From: an uncultured Collinsella sp.
GTDB lineage: Bacteria > Actinomycetota > Coriobacteriia > Coriobacteriales > Coriobacteriaceae
Length of the DNA: 64,000 nt
Direction of reading: 5' to 3'
Assembly (NCBI GenBank): GCA_902464575.1
Contig: CABQJU010000007.1
Span: forward strand, 2,945 to 66,944
Numbering within the stretch: the stretch's first letter is position 1; the number at the start of each line of letters is the position of its first letter. Positions 43,629 to 61,291 of the stretch are shown here, one piece after another. The position numbers and the translations under genes were made by a program. Below the pieces are notes generated by a model. It saw nothing but the letters and a program-made list of their open reading frames with translations. It made no database searches and had not been told where the DNA came from.

Positions 43629-43848
43629 CAAAAACCTACATACCGCTCTTGCCCCGATCTCACGTTGTGAGGTCGGGGCTTTTTCATGGCATGTAACCAT
43701 TCGCCGAAAATCGACCAACTTTTTTATCTTGCCTGTACATGTTTAAACAACATGTTTTACAATAGGCGTATCGAATCAGAACATCGGAGGCGGACTGCGC
43801 ACCCATCGGCAGACCGACCCCACAACAAGAAGGTTGGTGAGCGCATTC

Positions 43849-45354
43849 ATGGAGCGTGCAAGCGGCGTCCTCATGCCCGTCTCATCTCTGCCCGGACCAT
43901 ACGGAATCGGCGGCTTTGGCTGGAATGCCTACGACTTTGTCGATTTCCTCGCCTCGTGCAAACAACATTATTGGCAGATTCTGCCCCTTACGACGACTAG
44001 TTACGGCGATTCGCCTTACCAGTCGTTCTCGGCCCGCGCGGGCAACCCTAACTTCATTGACTTTGCCGAGCTTATCGAGGCAGGGTATCTGGAGCAGCGC
44101 GATATCGACGGCGTGTACCTGGGCTCCGATCCCAGCAATGTCGACTACGGTGCTATCTTTGCTGGCCGCCGCCAAATCCTCGACCGCGCCGCCGAGCGCT
44201 TCGCCGCGAATAAACCAGCCGATTTCGACGACTTTATCCAGGCAAACGAGGACTGGCTCATTCCCTACTGCGAGTTTATGACCGTAAAGGAGGAGTGCGG
44301 GCTCAAGGCCTTTTGGGAGTGGCCCGAGGAGCTCCGCCGCCGCGGCGAGGCATCCAACAAGATCTGCGCCGCCCATCCCGAGCGCATGCTTTACCACCAG
44401 ATGACGCAGTATTTCTTCGATCGCCAGTGGAGCCGCCTCAAGGCCTATGCCAACGAGCGCGACATCCTGATCATCGGCGACCTGCCCATCTACGTCTCGC
44501 GCGACTCCGTCGAGATGTGGGCCACGCCCGAGCTCTTTAAGATCGACGCCGCCGGCAATCCCGTCAGCGTCGCGGGAACGCCGCCCGACCAGTTCTCGGC
44601 CACCGGCCAGTACTGGGGCAACCCCATCTATGACTGGGATGCCATGGAAGCAGACGGCTTCTCTTGGTGGGAAGGCCGCATCCGAGCCGCCCTCGACATG
44701 TACAACATCATCCGTCTGGACCACTTCCGCGGTTTCGAGGCATTTTGGGAGGTGCCGTTCTCCTCTCCCGATTCGTCATATGGTTCGTGGACGCAGGGAC
44801 CCGGCCTCAAGCTCTTCAAGGTGCTCGAGGAAAAGCTCGGCACGCTTCCCATCATTGCCGAAGACCTGGGCTTTCTTACCCCTGGTGTCATCGACATGCG
44901 CGACACCACGGGCTTCCCTGGCATGAAGATCCTGCAGTTTGCCTTTGAGGGCACCAACTCGTACTACCTGCCGCACAACTACATTGCCAACACCGTCGCC
45001 TACGTCGGAACGCATGACAACGAAACGGCACGCGGCTGGTATGAGGGAACGGCCACCCCGCGTCAGCGCGAGCAGGCGGCCCTGTATACCCACCAGCAGG
45101 CAGGCGAGTCCACGGCCGATGCGCTCAACCGCACCATCGCCGCCAGCGTGAGCGATACCTGCATCTACACCATGCAGGACCTGCTCAATCTGGGCAACGA
45201 GGCGCGCATTAACACCCCCGCCACCCTGGGCGGTAACTGGACTTGGCGCATGCTTGATGGCGCCATCACCCGCGAACTCGAGCACAAGCTCACCGGCTGG
45301 ACCGAGACCTACTTCCGCATCCCATCGGAAGCCGAAATCGAGCTTCCTCAATAG
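43849..45354 (+). CDS. malQ: 4-alpha-glucanotransferase (amylomaltase)
   Basis: 501 aa from ATG 43849; GVLMPVSSLPGPYGIGGFG, DHFRGF and IIAEDLG motifs. Confidence 0.9.
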   Translation: MERASGVLMPVSSLPGPYGIGGFGWNAYDFVDFLASCKQHYWQILPLTTTSYGDSPYQSFSARAGNPNFIDFAELIEAGYLEQRDIDGVYLGSDPSNVDYGAIFAGRRQILDRAAERFAANKPADFDDFIQANEDWLIPYCEFMTVKEECGLKAFWEWPEELRRRGEASNKICAAHPERMLYHQMTQYFFDRQWSRLKAYANERDILIIGDLPIYVSRDSVEMWATPELFKIDAAGNPVSVAGTPPDQFSATGQYWGNPIYDWDAMEADGFSWWEGRIRAALDMYNIIRLDHFRGFEAFWEVPFSSPDSSYGSWTQGPGLKLFKVLEEKLGTLPIIAEDLGFLTPGVIDMRDTTGFPGMKILQFAFEGTNSYYLPHNYIANTVAYVGTHDNETARGWYEGTATPRQREQAALYTHQQAGESTADALNRTIAASVSDTCIYTMQDLLNLGNEARINTPATLGGNWTWRMLDGAITRELEHKLTGWTETYFRIPSEAEIELPQ

Positions 45355-45483: not shown

Positions 45484-47751
<2,268 letters not shown>

Positions 47752-48285: not shown

Positions 48286-49485
48286 CTAGATAAGGTTCTT
48301 GCCAGACACCTTATCGAAGAGATGGGTCGCGTTCTTCTCGAACTTGAACCAGATGGAGTCGCCCGCCTTGAGCGCACCCTTGGCCTCAAGGTCGACAACG
48401 GGAATGATCAGGACGAACTGGCCATCGGGAGCGGTCACGTGGACATGCTCGGTCGAACCCATGAGCTCGGTCACCTCGACGGTACCCTGGAGCGCACCCT
48501 CCTCGCCCTTGTCGGCAAGCAGAATCTGCTCGGGGCGCACGCCGGCCGTAATCTCCTTCACGTCGCCGCCGTCCCAGTTGAGAGCAAGCTGAGAGCAGGT
48601 CTCGGGGGCGAGCGCCACGTTCATATCCTCGGTCTTGACGGTGAAGCCGTTGCCCGAGCGCGCCAGCTGGGCATCGAAGAAGTTCATCTGCGGCACGCCG
48701 ATAAAGCCGGCAACGAAGATGTTCGCGGGATGGTTGAAGACCTCCTGCGGGGTGGCGATCTGCTGGACGACGCCGTCCTTCATGACCACAATGCGATCGC
48801 CGAGGGTCATGGCCTCGGTCTGGTCGTGGGTGACGTAGATGAACGTGCCCTTGATCTCGTGGCGCAGCTTGATGAGTTCGGCACGCATCTGGTTACGAAG
48901 CTTAGCGTCCAGGTTGGACAGCGGCTCGTCCATCAGGAAGACCTTAGGATCACGCACGATGGCGCGGCCGATAGCGACACGCTGGCGCTGGCCGCCCGAA
49001 AGCGCCTTGGGCTTGCGGTCGAGGTACTCGGTGATACCCAAGATCTCGGCAGCGGAGCGAACCTTGCGGTCGATCTCGTCTTTGGGGACCTTCTTGAGCT
49101 CAAGCGTAAACGCCATGTTCTCGTACACCGTCATGTTGGGGTACAGAGCGTAGCTCTGGAACACCATGGCGATGTCGCGGTCCTTGGGCGCCACGTCGTT
49201 GACGCGCTTGCCGTCGATGAGCACATCGCCCGAGGTAATGTCCTCCAGGCCGGCAACCATGCGCATCGTCGTGGACTTACCGCAGCCAGAGGGACCAACG
49301 AGAACGACGAACTCCTGGTCGTGAACGGTGAGGTTGAAGTCCTCTACAGCGAGCACGCCATCCTCGGTAACCTTAAGGTTATGCTTCTTCTCCTCGGTCT
49401 TCTTCTTTTTGCCAAAGAAGCCCTTCTTTTTGGACTCGGTGTTGGGATACACCTTCTGAACATGTTTGAGAACGATCTCGGCCAT
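48286..49485 (-). CDS. Sugar ABC transporter ATP-binding protein (MsiK/MsmK/MalK type) with a Lys-rich N-terminal insertion
   Basis: 399 aa; GPSGCGKST, LSGGQRQRV, FLMDEPLSNLD and a C-terminal MalK-like regulatory domain; extra segment ESKKKGFFGKKKKTEEKKHNLKVTEDG before Walker A. Confidence 0.9.
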   Translation of the reverse strand: MAEIVLKHVQKVYPNTESKKKGFFGKKKKTEEKKHNLKVTEDGVLAVEDFNLTVHDQEFVVLVGPSGCGKSTTMRMVAGLEDITSGDVLIDGKRVNDVAPKDRDIAMVFQSYALYPNMTVYENMAFTLELKKVPKDEIDRKVRSAAEILGITEYLDRKPKALSGGQRQRVAIGRAIVRDPKVFLMDEPLSNLDAKLRNQMRAELIKLRHEIKGTFIYVTHDQTEAMTLGDRIVVMKDGVVQQIATPQEVFNHPANIFVAGFIGVPQMNFFDAQLARSGNGFTVKTEDMNVALAPETCSQLALNWDGGDVKEITAGVRPEQILLADKGEEGALQGTVEVTELMGSTEHVHVTAPDGQFVLIIPVVDLEAKGALKAGDSIWFKFEKNATHLFDKVSGKNLI

Positions 49486-49502
49486 GTCTTTACCTTTCGA
49501 TG

Positions 49503-49529
49503 TGCGGCGCCGCGCTGAGGGGCGCCGCA
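49503..49529 (-). promoter_or_regulatory. GC-rich hairpin in the 5' UTR of the msiK-like gene
   Basis: 9-bp stem tgcggcgcc/ggcgccgca with a 9-nt loop, 18 nt upstream of the start codon; position resembles the actinobacterial msiK leader motif (not verifiable here). Confidence 0.3.
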
Positions 49530-49553
49530 GAAACTTGCAAAACAGTTACGACA

Positions 49554-50393
49554 TCAGCCCTTGACGGCACCTGCCACCACGCCGTCGATGATGTACTTCT
49601 GGCAGAGGATGTACATGATGACGATGGGGATAACGACCATCATGATGCAGGCCATCATGGGGCCGAGCTCGACGTGGCCATAGCCGCCGCGGAAGTACTG
49701 GATCAAGATAGGAATGGTCTTGTACTTGGTGGAGTCGAGGGTGAGGTAGGGCAGCAGGTAGTCGTTCCAGACCCACATGGTCTCGAGAATGCCGACCGAA
49801 AGATAGGTGGGCTTCATGATGGGAAGGACGATTTTAAAGAACACCTGGACCGGGTTGCAGCCGTCGATCATGGCCGCCTCCTCGATCTCGAGCGGGATGT
49901 TCTTTACAAAGCCGGCGAACATAAAGACCGCCAGGCCTGCGCCAAAGCCAAGGTAGATAAAGCAGATGTTGAACGGCGTGTTGAAGCCGATGCGGTCCGC
50001 CAAATTGGACAGCGTGAACATGAGCATCTGGAACGGCACGACCATCGAGAACACGAACAGGTAATAGAAGAAGTTCGAGATCTTGTTGTTGACGCGCACC
50101 ACGTACCAAGCGCACATGGAGCAGCACACCAAAATCAGCACGACCGACGTGACCGTGATAATGAGCGAGTACATAAACGCCGAGGCAAAGCCCTGCTCGT
50201 TAAGGGCGTGCACGTAGTTTGCAAGGCCGTTGAACGTCTCGGGCGTGAGCAAATCGAATGCCGTGGTGGTGCTGATTGCAGTTCCCTTTTTAAAGGAATT
50301 GAGCGCAATCATGAACACGGGGTAGATCCACGCGAGCGACAGGATCGTAAAGAAAATCGAGAGCGCGCGGTTGATAACCTTATCGCGTTTCAT
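49554..50393 (-). CDS. Carbohydrate ABC transporter permease (MalG-like)
   Basis: 279 aa, 6 TM segments, EAA-loop IEEAAMIDGCNPVQVF. Confidence 0.9.
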   Translation of the reverse strand: MKRDKVINRALSIFFTILSLAWIYPVFMIALNSFKKGTAISTTTAFDLLTPETFNGLANYVHALNEQGFASAFMYSLIITVTSVVLILVCCSMCAWYVVRVNNKISNFFYYLFVFSMVVPFQMLMFTLSNLADRIGFNTPFNICFIYLGFGAGLAVFMFAGFVKNIPLEIEEAAMIDGCNPVQVFFKIVLPIMKPTYLSVGILETMWVWNDYLLPYLTLDSTKYKTIPILIQYFRGGYGHVELGPMMACIMMVVIPIVIMYILCQKYIIDGVVAGAVKG

Positions 50394-51247
50394 TACTGCT
50401 GCACCTCCTTGGACCTCGTGGCCTTAAGCTGAATCATGGAGATGGCTACGACCAGGATGCAGAAGATAACCGCCTTGGCCTGACCGATGCCCTGCCATGC
50501 GATGCCGGCACGCGAGTAGAACGTGTTGTAGATGTTCAGGGCGAGCATCTCGGTGGAGTGCGCGGGGGCGCCGCCGGTAAGGGCGAGGTTCTGGTCGAAC
50601 AGCTTAAAGCCGTTGGTGATGGACAGGAACAGGCAGATGGTAATCGTCGGCATCAGATTGGGGATCTTAACCTTCCAGAACGTCTGCCATGCCGTGGCAC
50701 CGTCAACCTTGGCGGCCTCGATGTAGTCGGACGGAATGGACTGCAGACCGGCGATGTAGATGATCATCATGTAGCCGACCTGCTGCCACAGGGTCAGGAT
50801 GATAAGGCCCCAGAAGCCAGCAGCAGAGTTAAGGGCGATGAGCTGGGCGCCGATGTTGGAGAGCAGGCAGTTGATCAAGATCTGCCAGATGTAGCCCAGC
50901 ACGATGCCGCCGATCAGGTTAGGCATAAAGAAGATCGTACGGAAGATGTTGGTGCCTTTGAGCGCCTTGCGGGTGAGCGCCTGCGCAATTGCCAGGGCGA
51001 TCACGTTGATGAGCACCGTCGACAGGAAGGCAAACGCCACGGTAAAGAAGAACGACGTGGCAAACTGCGGATCGGACAGCGCGCGCACGTAGTTCGCGAT
51101 ACCGACAAAGTGCGCGTTGTTAATGGTAATAAACTGGCAGAACGAGAGATAGAAGCCCTGGATAAAAGGGATCACGAACCCGATCATAAACGCCAGGCAC
51201 GTGGGCAGCATAAAGAGCGGCCACCAGCGCTTGAGTGCTTTGCCCAT
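50393..51247 (-). CDS. Carbohydrate ABC transporter permease (MalF-like)
   Basis: 284 aa, EAA-loop YIEAAKVDGATAWQTF; stop overlaps the start of the next permease gene. Confidence 0.9.
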   Translation of the reverse strand: MGKALKRWWPLFMLPTCLAFMIGFVIPFIQGFYLSFCQFITINNAHFVGIANYVRALSDPQFATSFFFTVAFAFLSTVLINVIALAIAQALTRKALKGTNIFRTIFFMPNLIGGIVLGYIWQILINCLLSNIGAQLIALNSAAGFWGLIILTLWQQVGYMMIIYIAGLQSIPSDYIEAAKVDGATAWQTFWKVKIPNLMPTITICLFLSITNGFKLFDQNLALTGGAPAHSTEMLALNIYNTFYSRAGIAWQGIGQAKAVIFCILVVAISMIQLKATRSKEVQQ

Positions 51248-51334
51248 AAAAGGGTCCTTTCAATATGCAGGGGGCGGGCAAACCAACGTCTGCCCGCCCC
51301 CTGTCGCTAATCAGATAGCTTGGGCAGCAACTGC

Positions 51335-52651
51335 TTACTCGGAAGCAGCCTTCTCGGTCTTCCAGCCATCGACGAAGGCGTTCTTGACGCCGTCCCACTT
51401 GGTGTTGTCGGCAGCATAAGCAATGAGAGCCTGCTTGAGGTTCTTCTTCCACTCCTCAGAGGGGATGTAGACGAAGTCCCAAGCAACGGTCTTCTTGCCG
51501 TCCTTGGCCATGGCAACGGCCTGCTGCGAGAAGACGTTGGTGGTTTCCTTGGCGCTCTTGAACGGGGCAGTCAGACCCATCTTGTCAGCGATGATGCTGG
51601 TGGCGGTGTCAGAAGTGACGCACCAATACATGAAGTCCTCGGTGGCCTTCTGAGCATCCTCGGAAGCCTGGGAGCTCACGCACCAGTAGTTCTCGCCGCC
51701 GGAGCACAGGCCCTGGTTCTCCTCGCCGTCAACGCCGATGTAGATCGGCAGCATGCCGAGCTGGTCGTCGGTCATACCGGCCTTGGTGAGGTCAGCGTAT
51801 GCCCAAGAGCCGTTCTGATAGAAGACGGCCTTGCCGGTTGCGAACTCGTTGGTGGCGTCGTCGCCGGTCTTGGAAGCAAGCTGCGAAGGATCGCAGGTGG
51901 AGTCGGTGATGTACAGGTCGAAAATCTGCTTGAAGTTGTCGAGATACTCGCCCTTGATCTCGTCGTCCTCCTGGTTGTGCTCCTTCTCGAACTCGTAGTA
52001 GAGCGGGAGGTTGGCGAGGTGAGTGGTGTAGCGCCAGCTGGAGGAGTCATCCATGCCGGCAGAAGTGAAGGCACCCTCAACACCAAGCTCGTCCTTGCGG
52101 GCCTGGATGTCGTCAGCACAAGCCTTCAGCTTGTCGAAGGAGTTGATGTCCTCGGCCTTGTAGCCAGCCTTCTCGAGCAGCTGCTTGTTGTAGATGATGC
52201 CGTAGCTCTCCTGAACCCAGTCGATGCCCAGATCCTTACCGTCGGACTGCAGCGCCAGGGAGTCATCGATGAGCTCACCGCGGAGCTTGGTGTCGGACAG
52301 GTCGGCGCAGTAGTCCTTCCAGTTCTTAAGGCCGGTGGGGCCGTTGACCTGGAACAGCGTCGGAGCGGAGCTCTTGGACATCTCGGACTTGAGCTTCTCC
52401 TCGTAGGTGTTGGAGGCGGCGGTCACGATCTTGACCTCGATGCCCTTCTCCTCCTTGTACGCCTTGGCGATCTCCTTCCACTCCTTGTCGACCTCAGGCT
52501 TGAATTGGAGGAAGTAGACCTCGGCAGCGTCACCAGAAGCAGAGGAGCCGGAGCCGGCGGAGCCACCGCAGCCCACGAGACCCAGACCAAGAACCGCAGC
52601 CGCGGAACCAGCAAAGCCCAGGAACTGCCTTCTGCTCATTTCGTTCTTCAT
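51335..52651 (-). CDS. Sugar ABC transporter substrate-binding lipoprotein
   Basis: 438 aa from ATG 52651 with AAAGGGTGG SD; Tat/lipobox-like MSRRQFLGFAGSAAAVLGLGLVGCGG. Confidence 0.88.
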   Translation of the reverse strand: MKNEMSRRQFLGFAGSAAAVLGLGLVGCGGSAGSGSSASGDAAEVYFLQFKPEVDKEWKEIAKAYKEEKGIEVKIVTAASNTYEEKLKSEMSKSSAPTLFQVNGPTGLKNWKDYCADLSDTKLRGELIDDSLALQSDGKDLGIDWVQESYGIIYNKQLLEKAGYKAEDINSFDKLKACADDIQARKDELGVEGAFTSAGMDDSSSWRYTTHLANLPLYYEFEKEHNQEDDEIKGEYLDNFKQIFDLYITDSTCDPSQLASKTGDDATNEFATGKAVFYQNGSWAYADLTKAGMTDDQLGMLPIYIGVDGEENQGLCSGGENYWCVSSQASEDAQKATEDFMYWCVTSDTATSIIADKMGLTAPFKSAKETTNVFSQQAVAMAKDGKKTVAWDFVYIPSEEWKKNLKQALIAYAADNTKWDGVKNAFVDGWKTEKAASE

Positions 52652-52864
52652 TACAATCCACCCTTTCACACCGTGGCGGCACCCTTTGCCGCCGCCTTCG
52701 GAGATTGGCTCGGGGACTTTGCCCCTTTTGCTGATTTGTACAATACGCTATTTGACTAGTTGTTTGAACAAGTATTACAAGAGCGGTAGAAAAACTTCGG
52801 TGAACGGTAATTTCAACTTGATACTTGACAAGTTTTGTATAAACAATTATTTGTTATCAAATGC

Positions 52865-52919
52865 AGCGAAAACGCCCGGTCAAACCGATGCATCGTCGGT
52901 TTGACCGGGCGTTTTCGCT
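52865..52919. terminator. 24-bp perfect-stem hairpin between the GntR gene and the ABC operon promoter
   Basis: agcgaaaacgcccggtcaaaccga-tgcatcg-tcggtttgaccgggcgttttcgct. Confidence 0.6.
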
Positions 52920-52957: not shown

Positions 52958-53677
52958 CTATCGCTTGGAGTTGACGCGGTAGTGGAAGATCTCGGGGTGT
53001 GTGCGAGCGTGCGTCACCTCAAATAAGATGCCATCCGAGGTGTACGACTGGCTCTCCATGACGGCAACGCAGTTGTATTTGCCGAGGTCAAGATAGCTGC
53101 AGTCCTCATCATTGGCAAGCTCGACGCTCACTGTACGGCGACTCGCCATCACCTTGACGCCGCGTTTGTGCTCCAGATAGTCGTAAATTGACTTTGCGGC
53201 GATCTCGGGCGTCAGGCCCTTGGCGATTGACTCCAAAAAGTAACCATGGTCTACTTGGCGCGCATTGCCGTTGAGGCTTCGGACACGCACCACGCGAATC
53301 AACTCCTCGCCCACCTTAAAGCCCAGGCGACGAGAGAGTTGCTCAGTGCAAATCAAATGTTCAAAAGACTTGACCTCGGTCGATGCGACGGCATTGTTGC
53401 GCTTTGCAAATTCGCCAAACGACTCGACTTCCTCGAGTGCGCCCAGCATGTCGGTTTCGCCCTTGAGCCAAATAACGCGCACGCCCTTGCCGTGTATAGG
53501 CTGCACAAACATCTGGTCGGCCAGCATGCTCAAGGCGCGTCGAACGGTATTGCGCGTGCAGCCAAACTCCGCGGTCAGCTCGGCTTCGGTTGGCAGCATC
53601 TCCTGAAACGCATAAGTCCCGTTAATGATGCGCGAACGGATCTCGCGGTAGATTCCTTCGTAAATCGCTTTTGGCAT
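52958..53677 (-). CDS. GntR/HutC-family regulator (TreR-like), divergent from the PTS-HAD gene
   Basis: 239 aa; wHTH TEAELTAEFGCTRNTVRRALSML plus UTRA domain. Confidence 0.87.
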   Translation of the reverse strand: MPKAIYEGIYREIRSRIINGTYAFQEMLPTEAELTAEFGCTRNTVRRALSMLADQMFVQPIHGKGVRVIWLKGETDMLGALEEVESFGEFAKRNNAVASTEVKSFEHLICTEQLSRRLGFKVGEELIRVVRVRSLNGNARQVDHGYFLESIAKGLTPEIAAKSIYDYLEHKRGVKVMASRRTVSVELANDEDCSYLDLGKYNCVAVMESQSYTSDGILFEVTHARTHPEIFHYRVNSKR

Positions 53678-53904: not shown

Positions 53905-56358
53905 ATGCTGCAAAAAATCCAACGCTTTGGCGGGGCAATGTTCGCGCCCGCCATGCTGTTTTCCATATCGGGCCTTATGGTCGGCGTCTCCGCCCTCGCA
54001 ACGTCTGCGGATATCGTCGGCGACCTCGCCGTATACGGAACCCCTTGGTACGTTTTTTGGACTATCATTCAGCGCGGCTCGTGGACGGTCTTTAAACGAC
54101 TTCCGCTCCTTTTTGCCGTAGCGCTTCCCATCGGCCTTGCCCAAAAGCAACCGGCACGTTGTTGCCTCGAGGCGCTCGTGGCTTATTTTGCCTATTGCTT
54201 CTTTTTGAGCGAGATCATCAAGCTAAGCGGAGACAACCTTGGACTTAAGTACCCGTCGTCTTTGACCCCCGCTAGCGGCATTACCATCATCGACGGCATC
54301 AAGACGCTCGACACCGGCATTATCGGCCCGCTAGCGGTATCGGCAACCGTCGTCGCCATCCATGACCGCTTCTACGATGCCAAGGTCCCCGATTGGCTCG
54401 GCACCTTCTCGGGTTCCTCGCTGGTCTACCTCATCAGCTTTTTTGCCGTGTTCGCCCTTGCCGCCATCTCGGCCGCCATCGTGCCCTTCGTATACGCAGC
54501 GACCGAAACGCTGCGCCACGCACTTGTGGGCGTCGGCCCCCTCGGCGTGGGTATCTTTGCGTTTTTGGAGCGAGCACTCGAGCCCATGGGGCTGCACCAC
54601 CTGCTCTACATGCCTATCTACTACGACAATTTAGTTATTAACGACGGCATCTACGCCACGTGGACCAACTTGCTTCCCATCCTCTCGCACAGCACGCGCC
54701 CCCTCAATGAGCTTGCGCCGTGGGCCGGTTTTACCGCCACCGGCTGGGTCAAGCTCTTTGGCCTTCCTGCCATCGCGGCTGCGTTCTACTCCACCGCAAA
54801 GCCCGAGCGCCGCGCTGCCCTCAAGGTCATCCTGGTTCCCGCCATTGTTGCCTCAGTGGTCTGCGGCGTCACCGAACCGCTCGAGTTTCTCTTTATGTTC
54901 ACCTATCCCGGACTCTTTTTGCTCTATGCCGTCCTATCTTCCTGCCTCGCCATGGCTATGAACTTCTTTGGCGTCGTCGGCATCTTCTCGGGCGGTTTTA
55001 TGGAAATGGCTGCCTTCAACTTTATCCCGCTCATGCGGACGCATGCCGGCTCCTACCTTTTGGCACTCGGAATCGGACTCATCTTTAGCGTCATCTTCTT
55101 TCTGAGCTTTCGAGGTCTTATCCTGACCTTTGACCTTAAAACCCCGGGACGCGAGGACCATATCGCCAGCAACGCGGCGCTCTCGCGCTTGACGGGAGAC
55201 GACGTTGACGAAAAGCGCACATCCAAAACCGGCGCTTCCGACGACCAGGCCTCACAAGATCATCTGCTCGCCGAGCAGGTTGTGACGCTTCTGGGCGGCG
55301 TCTCCAACATTGTGGGCGCAACCAACTGCGCCACGCGGCTGCGCGTCGAAGTCGTGGACCCCTCCATCGTCGCGGACAATGCGACCTTTGTCGCAGCGGG
55401 TGCCAAAGGCCTCATCATTACGGGCAAGACCGCCCAGGTGATCATCGGCATCTCCGTTCCCCGCGTTAAAGAGCATTTTGACCAGATCATGGGCCTCGAG
55501 CCGGAATTTGTGCCCACCACCTCGGCCTCCCCTGCCGCCAGCGCAGCCCATAAGCGCGGCGATATTTGCTTCTTCGATATCGACGGAACGCTCGCCTGGC
55601 AAGACCCCAGGCTCGCCCAAGACCTTCCCGAAGACGAGCGGGACCTCTCCCCCTATCCCAACGAGGCGGTTTCGCAGGCAATCCGCGAGTTTGTCGCCAA
55701 CGGCAACATGGCCTTTATCTGCACGGGACGTACCCTGAGCTGCATCCACCCCAAACTTCTTGAGCTGCCCTGGACCGGCATCGTCTGTCTTGCGGGCGGT
55801 TACGCCGAGATCAACGGACACGCAATTCGCGATCTGTCGATGACACCCAGCATGCTGCAGCATCTTGCCCCCTATCTTGAGCAATCGGGCGAGGTCATCC
55901 GCTTTGAGGGCCTCAACGGCGTCGTGCGCATGAGTGCCGATGCGCCCGATGCTCCCGGATACGCGCGCACCCTGGGCGACGCAGTCACGCAGCTGCAACA
56001 TTACAGTGTCTACAAGATCTTGATGTCTACATCACTCGCCAACCACATCGCTCAAGATAAGGCACTTGAGCCGCTACTGTGCTTTAACGAGCTCGAACTC
56101 GAGGTAACCGAAATCTCGCCCCGCGAATGCACGAAGCGCGGGGGCATCCAGTCTGTACTCGACGCCCTCGATCCCCACCACGGAACCGTATACGGCATTG
56201 GCGACGCCAGCAATGACGTCTCGCTGATGAACGCCGTCGATGTCGGTATCGCCATGGGCAATGCGCCGGACTATCTCAAGGATAAGGCCGATTACGTGAC
56301 CGACACCGTCGATCACGACGGTGTCGTTGCGGCGCTCGAGCATTTTGGGCTGATTTAG
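53905..56358 (+). CDS. PTS glucose-family EIIC-EIIB fused to a Cof-type (HAD-IIB) sugar-phosphate phosphatase
   Basis: 817 aa. EIIC with VTEPLEF; EIIB with NCATRLRV phospho-Cys motif; C-terminal ~270 aa with FFDIDGTL (HAD motif I), ICTGR and GIGDASNDVSLM (motif IV). GGGAGG SD. Confidence 0.85.
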   Translation: MLQKIQRFGGAMFAPAMLFSISGLMVGVSALATSADIVGDLAVYGTPWYVFWTIIQRGSWTVFKRLPLLFAVALPIGLAQKQPARCCLEALVAYFAYCFFLSEIIKLSGDNLGLKYPSSLTPASGITIIDGIKTLDTGIIGPLAVSATVVAIHDRFYDAKVPDWLGTFSGSSLVYLISFFAVFALAAISAAIVPFVYAATETLRHALVGVGPLGVGIFAFLERALEPMGLHHLLYMPIYYDNLVINDGIYATWTNLLPILSHSTRPLNELAPWAGFTATGWVKLFGLPAIAAAFYSTAKPERRAALKVILVPAIVASVVCGVTEPLEFLFMFTYPGLFLLYAVLSSCLAMAMNFFGVVGIFSGGFMEMAAFNFIPLMRTHAGSYLLALGIGLIFSVIFFLSFRGLILTFDLKTPGREDHIASNAALSRLTGDDVDEKRTSKTGASDDQASQDHLLAEQVVTLLGGVSNIVGATNCATRLRVEVVDPSIVADNATFVAAGAKGLIITGKTAQVIIGISVPRVKEHFDQIMGLEPEFVPTTSASPAASAAHKRGDICFFDIDGTLAWQDPRLAQDLPEDERDLSPYPNEAVSQAIREFVANGNMAFICTGRTLSCIHPKLLELPWTGIVCLAGGYAEINGHAIRDLSMTPSMLQHLAPYLEQSGEVIRFEGLNGVVRMSADAPDAPGYARTLGDAVTQLQHYSVYKILMSTSLANHIAQDKALEPLLCFNELELEVTEISPRECTKRGGIQSVLDALDPHHGTVYGIGDASNDVSLMNAVDVGIAMGNAPDYLKDKADYVTDTVDHDGVVAALEHFGLI

Positions 56359-59074: not shown

Positions 59075-61291
59075 CTAATTGTTCAGCATGCGGTCGAAGC
59101 TTCCCGAGTCGCCATCCCGATAGTCTGCGGTCATCAGAATCTCCTGCGGAATGCGCCCGCCTTCACGTAGCACGTTGCGGAACTGCACGCGCGTAACCAT
59201 GGGCAGATCCTTGATCGTCGCTGCCAGGTTCTGCGGCACGCCCTGGTTGGCAGCCGCGGGCTCGCACTCGCCGCCGGCCTTCACGCGACGCTTATGCTCG
59301 GCGAGCATGGCGCGGTACATGCCGGCATGCAGGCGAATCTCAACCACATTGGCATTGCGAGCCTGTTCGACGATGCGCGCGCCCTCGCGATCGATATCGC
59401 CTACGTAGTAGACGTAGTTAAAGCGATAGCCAATCTCGGCCAGATAATCGTCCAAGGCATGCGAGACGCTCGCCTTGCATCCGCCGCCAAAAATCACGCC
59501 GCCCACCTTGATGCCAAAGAGCTTGGCGTGCTTGCGGCCACGCAGCAGCTTGACGATCTCGTCGTAGGTGTCCAGGTTCTCGACCATAATGAACGGCTTG
59601 TCGGCTCCCAGCGTAAAGAAGCCCGTAAAGTGCACGGGGCGATTGGGGGCGACCTTGATCGCCTGCATGCTGATGCCCTTTTCGGTCATACGCCTGATCA
59701 AGCGCTCACCGTGCTTGCCGTCAAAAGCCTTCTCGTCGTTAAAGATCTGGTAGGCACGCTGGCGGCGCGAGGCAACCGGCGTATCGGCACCTCGGTTCTG
59801 CTCGATCCAAGCCTGGATGATTGCGATTTCCTCGGCAATCTTGCGGTTGGACATCTCGTTGTGCTGAGTGCGCTGCGGAGCCTTTTTGCCGTCCTTGCCC
59901 TCGACCTTTACGATCTGTGTCTGCTGCTCCTTAATCTTGGAGAGCGCCATTGGCGTGGGAACGACCTTGAGCAGCTGCCTGCCCAGGACACGGGCCAGAG
60001 CAAACGCCGAAACCTCGCCATGAGCGGGCTGCTCAGGCTGCTGGGCGGCCGCATCGTTTGCAGTCGGTTTGGGCTGCGCCTGGGATTTGTGCTTGGAATC
60101 TGCCTGAGCTTTGCGCTCTTGCTTTGGCGCGGACGAGCTCTTTTGCGAACGTTCAGGCTTGTCCCCCTTCGCCGGCTGGCGCTTGGGCTGCTCCACCGGG
60201 GTCTCAGCCTTCACATCCTTGTTTTGCGTTGTCGCCTTCTCGGCCACGGTTTCGGCATTTGAGCCACGTCCGCCACGGTGACGACGACGGCGGGGCTTGC
60301 TCGAAGCGCTCTCCCCCGCCTGTTTATCAGCGGACTGTTGAACTTTGACCTCGGTGTCAGCCGCAGGCTGCGACTCGGAAGGTTGCTGCTCGCGAGCCGC
60401 CGGCTCAACGGTTTTCTCGGTTTGTTCGGCCTTATCGGCCTGAGCGGTCGAAGCCGGCTCGCCCTTCTCCTGACGCTTTACGGGATACGCGCGCCCTGCA
60501 AAACCGCGGCCGGGACGACACGAACCCGGAGCCCTCTTGGCAGACTCCTCAACATCGTCTGCAACCTCGGAAGGCTCTTCAACCTCACGCGCGACATCCT
60601 GCTGCGCAGCCTTGAAGTGAGCACCGCGACGACGCTTGGGCTCTTGGGCCTCCACGGGCTTTTGTTCCTTCGCGGGCTCCTGCGACTCAGCGGCAACCTC
60701 GGTCTCAACAGCCTCAGCATCCGTCTCACCCTTTCGAGCAACGGCGCGACGGAAGCGCTCCTGCTGGGCGCGGCGCTGCGCATCGCGCTTGCCACCCCCG
60801 CCAAAACCGCCGCGTCCTGCCTTGGCCGTAAAGGCACGCACGACGTTCTCATCGAGCAACTCATCGGTATCGACATGCTCACGCGGGGCAACTTCTTCCA
60901 CAGCAGGCACGTCAGCGGGATCCTCGACGACAAAATCCTCGACGGACTCGGCAGGCTGCTCCTGGGCATCGCGGATCTCGGCATTGATGGTATAGAACGC
61001 CGGGCGCCCGTTAATGCCGCTACCCTCGATCTTGGTCACGATATTTGCCGCGATAAGCTCATCGCGCATCGCCTTGGTGTCACATTCCTTATCGACGGAG
61101 CGGAAAATTTGCGCCAGCGCGCTCGACTTGATCTTGAGCGCCTTGCGGCAAAGCAGGTCGTAGGCAACCAGCTTGGCACGCTCAGCAGAAAGCGATGTCT
61201 GGCTGCTCAGACGCTCAGCCAGGGCATCGACATTATTTTGGTTATCGGAATATACCGTCTTGGCCACGGGGCCCCTTTCATATGTACACAT
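59075..61291 (-). CDS. Orphan JetD/MksG-like (DUF2220-type) Toprim-domain protein with N-terminal wHTH-like domain and a long low-complexity linker
   Basis: 738 aa (alternative GTG start at 61267 after AAAGGGG). The C-terminus has FIMVENLDTYDEI, VIFGGGCKAS, YYVGDIDREGARIVEQAR and LHAGMYRAMLAEH in the order seen in JetD/TopoVI-A Toprim domains. The middle ~300 aa are K/E/Q/P/A-rich. Confidence 0.55.
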   Translation of the reverse strand: MCTYERGPVAKTVYSDNQNNVDALAERLSSQTSLSAERAKLVAYDLLCRKALKIKSSALAQIFRSVDKECDTKAMRDELIAANIVTKIEGSGINGRPAFYTINAEIRDAQEQPAESVEDFVVEDPADVPAVEEVAPREHVDTDELLDENVVRAFTAKAGRGGFGGGGKRDAQRRAQQERFRRAVARKGETDAEAVETEVAAESQEPAKEQKPVEAQEPKRRRGAHFKAAQQDVAREVEEPSEVADDVEESAKRAPGSCRPGRGFAGRAYPVKRQEKGEPASTAQADKAEQTEKTVEPAAREQQPSESQPAADTEVKVQQSADKQAGESASSKPRRRRHRGGRGSNAETVAEKATTQNKDVKAETPVEQPKRQPAKGDKPERSQKSSSAPKQERKAQADSKHKSQAQPKPTANDAAAQQPEQPAHGEVSAFALARVLGRQLLKVVPTPMALSKIKEQQTQIVKVEGKDGKKAPQRTQHNEMSNRKIAEEIAIIQAWIEQNRGADTPVASRRQRAYQIFNDEKAFDGKHGERLIRRMTEKGISMQAIKVAPNRPVHFTGFFTLGADKPFIMVENLDTYDEIVKLLRGRKHAKLFGIKVGGVIFGGGCKASVSHALDDYLAEIGYRFNYVYYVGDIDREGARIVEQARNANVVEIRLHAGMYRAMLAEHKRRVKAGGECEPAAANQGVPQNLAATIKDLPMVTRVQFRNVLREGGRIPQEILMTADYRDGDSGSFDRMLNN

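Follow-up and report, generated by a model that had tools for sequence, protein, structure and literature searches.

A 64,000-nucleotide stretch of DNA from an uncultured Collinsella sp. (contig CABQJU010000007.1; "the window" in what follows) carries, at positions 53905 to 56358 of its forward strand, a gene whose product joins the EIIC and EIIB parts of a sugar permease of the phosphotransferase system (PTS) to a Cof-type HAD-IIB phosphatase domain. We consider it moderately probable that this protein combines an alpha-glucoside PTS permease with a phosphatase for that permease's product, and that it would supply MalQ and GlgP by a route resembling that of MalT and MapP. PTS permeases are defined by the release of a phosphorylated sugar. 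The protein is named only "PTS transporter subunit EIIC" at NCBI, and the phosphatase half is therefore invisible in its name. The gene had been singled out in an earlier annotation made from the letters of the DNA, here called the sequence-only reading.

One reading frame with three domains

The gene begins with ATG and runs for 817 codons with zero internal stops, as the sequence-only reading had it, and all of the motifs quoted in that reading are present. A GGGAGG Shine-Dalgarno sequence ends 6 nucleotides 5' of the ATG. Some gene callers start at Met12 (53938; 806 amino acids) instead of Met1 (53905; 817 amino acids); the GGGAGG site upstream of 53905 favors Met1. Pfam places PTS_EIIC (PF02378) at residues 11 to 345 (E 1e-39), PTS_EIIB (PF00367) at residues 458 to 489 (E 1.5e-11), and Hydrolase_3 (Cof-type HAD, PF08282) at residues 556 to 811 (E 1e-27); together with NCBIfam, this bears out the proposed order of EIIC, EIIB, and HAD. 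The features of the gene are listed below. Ratios of nonsynonymous to synonymous divergence (dN/dS) come from a codon-by-codon comparison in which the window's gene was the reference for 77 relatives among loci L001 to L080, 78 sequences in all.

53905..56358, + strand: fused EIIC-EIIB-linker-HAD gene, 817 amino acids plus stop; single open reading frame (ORF), three Pfam domains, fusion kept across Collinsella
53905..55134, + strand: EIIC membrane domain, residues 1-410; PF02378; aligns with E. coli PtsG EIIC; dN/dS 0.10
55135..55269, + strand: EIIC-EIIB linker, residues 411-455; hypervariable, with 51% mean amino acid identity to the window and a synonymous divergence (dS) of 1.35 among Collinsella orthologues
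55270..55494, + strand: EIIB domain, residues 456-530; PF00367; aligns with PtsG EIIB
55495..55563, + strand: EIIB-HAD linker, residues 531-553, 23 amino acids, LEPEFVPTTSASPAASAAHKRGD; predicted local distance difference test (pLDDT) score 55-66
55564..56355, + strand: Cof-type HAD-IIB phosphatase domain, residues 554-817; PF08282; AlphaFold2 (AF2) pLDDT 92.9; dN/dS 0.10

The EIIC part carries GLHH (229-232) and GVTEPLEF (321-328) and ends in an LKTPGRED hinge, all invariant or nearly so in the 78 sequences; GLHH and G(I/V)TEPxEF are the substrate-site features of PTS glucose-family EIICB permeases. The EIIB motif NCATRLR (from residue 474), invariant in 78 of 78 sequences, holds the phosphorylatable Cys475 (nucleotides 55327-55329), and with this cysteine in C(I/A)TRLR and the DLKTPGRED hinge to EIIC, the EIIB part has the marks of the same family. 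The linker between EIIB and HAD is rich in Ser, Ala, and Pro, as first described, with a length of 23 rather than about 25 residues; it occurs in 24 variants among the 78 sequences and has a dN/dS of about 1.2. The HAD domain has motif I at D558/D560 (DIDGT at 558), motif II at T607 (CTGR at 606), motif III at K744, and motif IV at D767/D771 (GDASND at 766). There is no hydrophobic stretch between EIIB and HAD; because EIIB needs a cytoplasmic location to work and nothing hydrophobic lies in between, we infer that the HAD domain must be cytoplasmic.

Conservation and selection in Collinsella

More than 120 protein clusters from independent assemblies, 92 to 100% identical and 806 to 823 amino acids long, contain all three domains, and the named entries among them are all Collinsella. 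The fused protein is encoded at 588 GTDB species-level loci (Collinsella). Eighty of these (L001 to L080) were fetched for an ORF scan, and 79 showed an intact ORF of 805 to 817 amino acids; the remaining one, L057, was missed by the ORF scan yet gave a full-length match in the genome-collection scan. C. aerofaciens strain RTP21428st2 has 100% protein identity to the window along the whole fused gene. The frame at the junction, which the sequence-only reading had wanted checked, is thus shared and intact throughout these clusters and loci. A sequencing or assembly frameshift that joined two genes is accordingly a vanishingly improbable origin for the ORF, since the same intact frame of 805 to 823 amino acids recurs in the independent clusters and the fetched loci, isolate genomes such as ATCC 35085 among them. 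The few database entries with frameshifted tails (P0122, P0148, P0163, and P0126), which might be taken to favor such an artefact, are exceptions. These four entries were also considered as divergent or truncated fusions and rejected as frameshifted assemblies of the same gene.

Both halves of the protein are under purifying selection. Relative to the window's gene, dN/dS is 0.10 for EIIC, 0.13 for EIIB, and 0.10 for HAD, and the catalytic motifs of all three domains are essentially invariant in the 78 Collinsella sequences; from these two observations it follows that both halves have been kept functional. The integrity of the catalytic residues, on which the original proposal depended, is in this way upheld.

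Divergence from the window is mosaic, with dS values of 0.34 for EIIC, 1.35 for the EIIC-EIIB linker, 0.48 for EIIB, 0.03 for the EIIB-HAD linker, and 0.10 for HAD, which suggests that the permease half has recombined or been replaced by another allele in the lineage of the window strain. The fused gene also occurs, 92% identical to that of Collinsella, on one fetched locus, L047 (contig CAVKNR010000103.1, 5.3 kb), that is binned as Sodaliphilus sp. (Bacteroidota); the contig was most likely misbinned, and gene transfer is the less likely explanation.

Split relatives and the origin of the fusion

A scan of 1.84 billion protein cluster representatives, of which the best 150 matches were considered, yielded only one full-length fused protein, P0121, at 86% identity. 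By this measure the fusion appears to be confined to the C. aerofaciens group. Six further long matches (P0203, P0229, P0258, P0256, P0173, and P0194) were evaluated as independent EIICB-HAD fusions and rejected; they proved to be EIICBA, multi-EIIB, or EI fusions. Below the best 150, other PTS families could still hold independent EIIC-HAD fusions. A word-indexed search from the unfused HAD protein P0154 did not recover the fused proteins, and it is not usable for counts of fused versus split forms.

Among unfused relatives, the nearest are an EIICB protein of 538 amino acids (51% identity) and HAD proteins of 269 to 276 amino acids (41 to 45% identity), encoded by adjacent genes on their contigs. 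The sequence-only reading had raised this arrangement as a possibility, and it was found in the following loci:

L081, Olsenella sp.: EIICB, 181-nucleotide gap, HAD
L082, a lineage with the window's flanking genes: GntR, EIICB, 71-nucleotide gap, HAD, polyprenyl synthase, peptidoglycan-binding protein
L087-L089, Paratractidigestivibacter: MalQ, GlgP, ABC transporter, GntR, EIICB, 45-nucleotide gap, HAD, which is the window's entire layout
L090 and L091, O. uli/profusa type: GntR, EIICB, HAD, in a different neighborhood

The EIICB of L090 is identical to O. uli DSM 7084 ADK68317.1. Directly 3' of the HAD gene in this O. uli-type locus (L090 11039-12391) lies a gene for 450 amino acids without a Pfam hit, possibly a further part of the module. 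In L082, the proteins encoded on either side are 64 to 82% identical to those of the window, while EIICB is only 46% and HAD only 45% identical.

The order EIICB followed by HAD is conserved in Coriobacteriia at 40 to 51% identity, mostly behind the same TreR-like GntR regulator, and the pairing is found in three different genomic contexts. When the DNA is aligned with that of the split loci L081 and L082, the window's linker falls exactly on the stretch that in them runs from the stop codon through the spacer and ribosome-binding site to the start codon of HAD. The fusion therefore arose when the stop codon was lost and translation continued through the former spacer; its source was a conserved adjacent gene pair, since other Coriobacteriia carry both parts side by side, with the same GntR regulator in front. 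Neither the start codon nor the ribosome-binding site of the ancestral HAD gene survives, and the HAD can therefore be made only within the fusion.

The permease and the genes that accompany it

The best NCBIfam model for residues 2 to 529 is the alpha-glucoside-specific PTS IIBC (TIGR02005), at 514 bits against a curated cut-off of 607.3, and the next is the N-acetylglucosamine model, at 235 bits. With the B. cereus MalT structure the EIICB reaches 71 bits, with E. coli PtsG 153 bits, and the trehalose PTS model TIGR01992 matches the EIIB part only, at 33 bits. NCBI names the split O. uli/O. profusa orthologues alpha-glucoside-specific IIBC. We therefore assign the EIICB, on its family scores, to the alpha-glucoside (AglA/GlvC-type) branch and not to the trehalose type; given the weak match to B. 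cereus MalT, it is probably not of the MalT type either. This refines the initial assignment to a glucose/maltose/trehalose family.

Partner genes were surveyed for four EIICB relatives outside the Coriobacteriia clade, taken from the best 150 matches. Three of them (35 to 36% identity) adjoin a glycoside hydrolase family 4 (GH4) glycosidase, L093 with an RpiR-type regulator in addition, and one (41% identity) adjoins a GH13 enzyme and an RpiR-type regulator. The combination of GH4, RpiR, and EIICB is the classic alpha-glucoside PTS operon (aglAB, glvARC). In the Coriobacteriia clade, the HAD gene occupies the place that GH4 or GH13 holds in these four more distant relatives. No GH4 or GH13 (phospho-alpha-glucosidase) gene was detected by tblastn within the window, none was seen in the related Coriobacteriia loci L082 and L087 to L091, and tblastn found no EIIA-Glc, EI, or HPr gene within the window; the reported lack of a phospho-alpha-glucosidase and of EIIA-Glc in the window is hence borne out. 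Other PTS loci have been reported in C. aerofaciens ATCC 25986 (PMC9905522). Because the HAD stands in the GH4/GH13 position and neither enzyme turned up in the window or the related loci, the permease product would most simply be handled by dephosphorylation instead of phospho-glycoside hydrolysis. A trehalose reading was set aside, as the permease is not TreP-type, the HAD is not OtsB-like, and the regulon described below holds no trehalose-cleaving enzyme.

The phosphatase domain

The HAD-IIB motifs (DxDGT, T/S, K, and GDxxxD) are all present and are invariant in fused and unfused relatives. The NCBIfam Cof model TIGR00099 matches residues 554 to 811 with 93.6 bits, below its cut-off of 137. 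Unfused HADs of this kind score 182 to 281 bits among themselves versus at most 92 bits to generic Cof proteins, and the subfamily was found only with the EIICB module, its named members being all Coriobacteriia. Directly after motif I lies an insertion of about 15 residues (WxDP...LPxxERxLSPxP; window 55591-55665, about residues 563-587), which every PTS-linked HAD of Coriobacteriia shares and which is missing in generic Cof proteins; it lies beside the active site, at the C1-type cap insertion position. On these grounds the domain is best described as a divergent Cof-type subfamily with an insertion after motif I. The insertion could shape specificity for a disaccharide phosphate.

An AF2 model of the domain, built from a 22-sequence alignment, has a mean pLDDT of 92.9. 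Its top Foldseek matches are all Cof-type HAD-IIB proteins, with template modeling (TM) scores of 0.72 to 0.80, and the model has the Rossmann-like core with a C2B cap. The best matches in the PDB are C. difficile 3fzq, BT4131, GK1056, BT1666, YbiV, YidA, and PfHAD1; a PDB sequence search also gives Cof-type sugar phosphatases. Structures of OtsB rank 39 or lower, with TM scores of 0.55 to 0.59, and no OtsB model appears among the NCBIfam matches listed, so that the domain does not belong with the OtsB-type trehalose-6-phosphate phosphatases. The parallel to OtsB drawn in the sequence-only reading holds for the HAD-IIB class, and the domain is much closer to broad Cof-type sugar phosphatases. 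It shows no sign of homology to MapP, the HAD being the only hydrolase domain detected by Pfam and NCBIfam; it can be seen as a possible functional analogue of MapP, not as a member of its family. The Cof-type HADs YidA, YbiV, and BT4131 are broad-range sugar phosphatases, and Cof enzymes are promiscuous. Capped C2B HADs act on small molecules, and a protein phosphatase acting on phosphorylated EIIB or on HPr was deemed unlikely.

Regulator, candidate operators, and maltose genes

The fused gene lies next to a divergent GntR-family regulator and shares its surroundings with genes for MalQ and a maltodextrin phosphorylase, as had been proposed, and with an ATP-binding cassette (ABC) transporter operon. 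The features are as follows:

52958..53677, - strand: GntR/HutC-family regulator, TreR-like, divergent; PF00392 and PF07702
53730..53741: candidate operator TTGTTTAAACCG, gntR/PTS-HAD intergenic region; the same motif occurs in the equivalent region of L087 and L090
53852..53863: candidate operator TTGTTTAAACGT, 42 nucleotides before the ATG of the fused gene
52760..52771: candidate operator TTGTTTGAACAA, in front of the ABC operon, with counterparts in L082, L087, and L092
52835..52846: candidate operator TTGTATAAACAA, likewise in front of the ABC operon
43739..43750: candidate operator ATGTTTAAACAA, before the malQ gene
48286..52669, - strand: sugar ABC transporter operon, from Pfam, with the same synteny in Paratractidigestivibacter; binding protein 51335-52669, permeases 50393-51247 and 49554-50393, MalK/MsmK-type ATPase 48286-49485
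43834..45354, + strand: MalQ, 4-alpha-glucanotransferase (GH77); PF02446, E 5.5e-169; NCBIfam
45484..47751, + strand: GlgP/MalP-type alpha-glucan (maltodextrin) phosphorylase; PF00343, E 3e-248; TIGR02093, 872 bits

The best NCBIfam model for the regulator is TreR (TIGR02404), at 164 bits and thus below the cut-off of 212; the GntR helix-turn-helix and UTRA domains are present, and the TreR-like character proposed at the outset is retained. An Arg-x-Arg pair in the regulator lines up with the pair by which YvoA and TreR hold the phosphoryl group, or a sulfate mimicking it, and the effector of TreR is the PTS product trehalose-6-phosphate (PMC2853113). The regulator is conserved next to EIICB-HAD in L082, L087, and L090.

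A palindrome-like motif, TTGTTTAAACAA, occurs at 5 sites in the window at up to 2 mismatches, compared with 0.46 expected; it was defined from two of these five sites, and the other three are independent. All five lie in promoter regions: two in that of gntR/PTS-HAD, two in that of the ABC operon, and one in that of malQ, which therefore shares a candidate operator with the PTS-HAD promoter. Sites at equivalent positions are found in Olsenella, Paratractidigestivibacter, and the L082 lineage (L082 295-306; L087 7139-7150 and 8311-8322; L090 8133-8144 and 8167-8178; L092 12424-12435). The nearest solved relative of the ABC binding protein is 9xor, deposited as "maltose-binding protein" (E 9e-29), and the whole MalQ-GlgP-ABC-GntR-EIICB-HAD synteny is preserved across families (Paratractidigestivibacter). 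The common motif in the promoters, the TreR-like regulator, the maltose-type binding protein, and the presence of MalQ and the phosphorylase together suggest that PTS-HAD, gntR, the ABC operon, and malQ-glgP form one alpha-1,4-glucoside regulon, with a phosphosugar as its probable inducer.

A perfect hairpin with a 20-bp stem and T-runs on both strands, at 52871-52913, separates the gntR stop codon from the ABC promoter; it is probably a bidirectional terminator making gntR monocistronic. Further along the window, a 738-amino-acid ORF at 59075-61291 (- strand) has no Pfam match at E 1e-5 or better and a long, charged, low-complexity middle.

Proposed route and alternatives

In the route that we propose, the substrate is most probably maltose, and perhaps maltotriose or another alpha-glucoside; it would pass through EIIC, and the phosphorylated Cys475 of EIIB would phosphorylate the 6-hydroxyl of its non-reducing glucosyl unit. 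EIIB would regain its phosphoryl group from an EIIA-Glc whose gene lies elsewhere in the genome. The Cof-type HAD, kept at the membrane by the flexible 23-residue linker, would then hydrolyze the sugar phosphate, and the free disaccharide would go to MalQ for disproportionation and to GlgP for phosphorolysis to glucose-1-phosphate. Longer maltodextrins would enter by the neighboring ABC transporter. The TreR-like GntR/HutC repressor would probably act on the TTGTTTAAACAA operators before all of these operons and probably senses the transient sugar phosphate. The tether may fix the stoichiometry at 1:1, or allow a toxic sugar phosphate to be removed near the site of its production. We infer the substrate, the phosphatase specificity, and the identity of the protein that binds the motif from sequence comparison.

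Several points weigh against this route. The main evidence against a strict coupling comes from one Olsenella metagenome-assembled genome (L092, GCA_023394055.1), which has EIICB cleanly deleted and HAD intact; comparison of L092 9567-10828 with L081 822-3602 shows that the deletion is flanked by the tRNA/promoter region on the upstream side and by the HAD gene on the other, and this HAD gene adjoins YdjM, GntR, the ABC transporter, and MalQ. Because L092 keeps the HAD without EIICB, the HAD may have a role independent of this permease. The EIICB stays under the TIGR02005 cut-off, and its substrate could for that reason be a different one. The TTGTTTAAACAA motif was derived from two of the five sites in the window, and its link to the GntR protein is putative. 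Finally, the synteny with malQ-glgP could reflect inherited gene order and not functional coupling.

The HAD could instead serve as a safety valve or a signal reset, with a phospho-alpha-glucosidase encoded elsewhere doing the main catabolism while the HAD trims excess or non-metabolizable sugar phosphates and may inactivate the phosphosugar that acts as inducer for the TreR-like repressor. Parallels exist in the relief of sugar-phosphate stress by E. coli YigL/SgrS and in inducer expulsion in lactic acid bacteria; the closest structural relatives, YidA, YbiV, and BT4131, act on a broad range of sugar phosphates, the regulator looks phosphosugar-sensing, and L092 retains its HAD without EIICB. 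We nevertheless regard this as unlikely: the HAD gene sits at the operon position of GH4/GH13 in the four more distant relatives, no phospho-alpha-glucosidase was seen in the window or the related Coriobacteriia loci, a covalent 1:1 tether would be a strange way to build an overflow enzyme, and the co-regulated MalQ and GlgP need unphosphorylated substrate by established enzymology. It is more doubtful still that the fusion is incidental, a neutral loss of the stop codon between neighbors whose HAD acts on something unrelated to the permease product, such as a hexose-6-phosphate, glucose-1-phosphate, or a cofactor phosphate. The promiscuity of Cof enzymes, the neutral evolution of the EIIB-HAD linker, the persistence of HAD without EIICB in L092, and the restriction of the fused form to one narrow lineage among the best 150 of 1.84 billion representatives would fit such an origin. 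Against it stand the conservation of the EIICB-HAD pairing through 40 to 51% divergence and three genomic contexts, a HAD subfamily found only with this module with scores that fall sharply to generic Cof proteins, and the fixation of the fused form, with purifying selection acting on it, across hundreds of Collinsella lineages.

The permease with a built-in product phosphatase thus remains our preferred interpretation, and it can be carried further. In this extended form, which we put forward tentatively and would not expect to hold in full, the GntR-EIICB-HAD module of Coriobacteriia would be a second, independently evolved solution to the problem met by MalT/MapP, with an undescribed HAD-IIB subfamily specific for alpha-glucoside-6-phosphates. 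The C. aerofaciens fusion would then be an importer of free disaccharide driven by phosphoenolpyruvate, in which the sugar phosphate exists briefly between EIIB and the tethered active site, is possibly channeled, and is mainly a signal for the TreR-like repressor of the whole maltose/maltodextrin regulon.

Relation to known systems

The E. faecalis MalT and MapP pair and the streptococcal MalT with MalQ/GlgP follow the same logic, in which PTS uptake is followed by a phosphatase and then by enzymes needing free maltose. The E. faecalis route and its maltose-6'-phosphate phosphatase were reportedly worked out by Mokhtari et al. in 2013 (a reference listed in PMC11976118). The malQ-glgP genes of S. 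mutans are the subject of PMC3737437. The phosphatase described here differs from MapP in being a Cof-type HAD-IIB enzyme covalently fused to the permease, whereas MapP is a separate protein, and the EIICB differs from MalT in being of the alpha-glucoside type and having no EIIA domain. MapP is an enzyme of the endonuclease/exonuclease/phosphatase fold. As MapP is not a HAD enzyme and the EIICB matches B. cereus MalT weakly, the proposed route would be analogous, not homologous, to that of MalT and MapP.

The alpha-glucoside PTSs (K. pneumoniae AglA/AglB; B. subtilis GlvC(MalP)/GlvA(MalA)/GlvR) have the same C-B order without EIIA and are the best-scoring family; in their operons, however, the partner is GH4 and not HAD, and the regulator is RpiR and not a TreR-like GntR. 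Cof-type HAD-IIB proteins such as B. thetaiotaomicron BT4131, E. coli YidA and YbiV, and P. falciparum HAD1 share the C2B-cap fold and the four motifs with the domain studied here, which is set apart by an identity of about 20%, by the insertion of about 15 residues after motif I, and by its tether to a membrane permease. The likeness to the B. subtilis trehalose system (TreP EIIBC, TreA, and TreR) lies in the regulator, whose best model is TreR, but the permease does not have the B-C order, there is no TreA-like GH13 in the window, and the HAD is far from OtsB.

The sequence-only reading knew of no characterized EIICB-HAD fusion, and our literature search likewise found no paper describing one and nothing relevant on EIIC-HAD fusions, on PTS or alpha-glucoside work in Collinsella, or on HAD-type maltose-6-phosphate phosphatases; a review of alpha-glucans yielded no information on MapP. 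What looks new here is a fused, HAD-based version of the known maltose route of PTS uptake and dephosphorylation. A permease fused to a predicted phosphate-removing enzyme would couple two otherwise incompatible routes, PTS uptake and the catabolism of free maltose by MalQ and GlgP. If this is true, the HAD domain would be a non-homologous counterpart to MapP, and an as yet unnamed HAD-IIB subfamily would gain a function. The fusion would also supply a "Rosetta stone" argument by which the split EIICB/HAD pairs of Olsenella and related genera could be annotated, and it would help to clarify how starch breakdown products are used by Collinsella aerofaciens, which is among the most abundant Actinomycetota of the gut.

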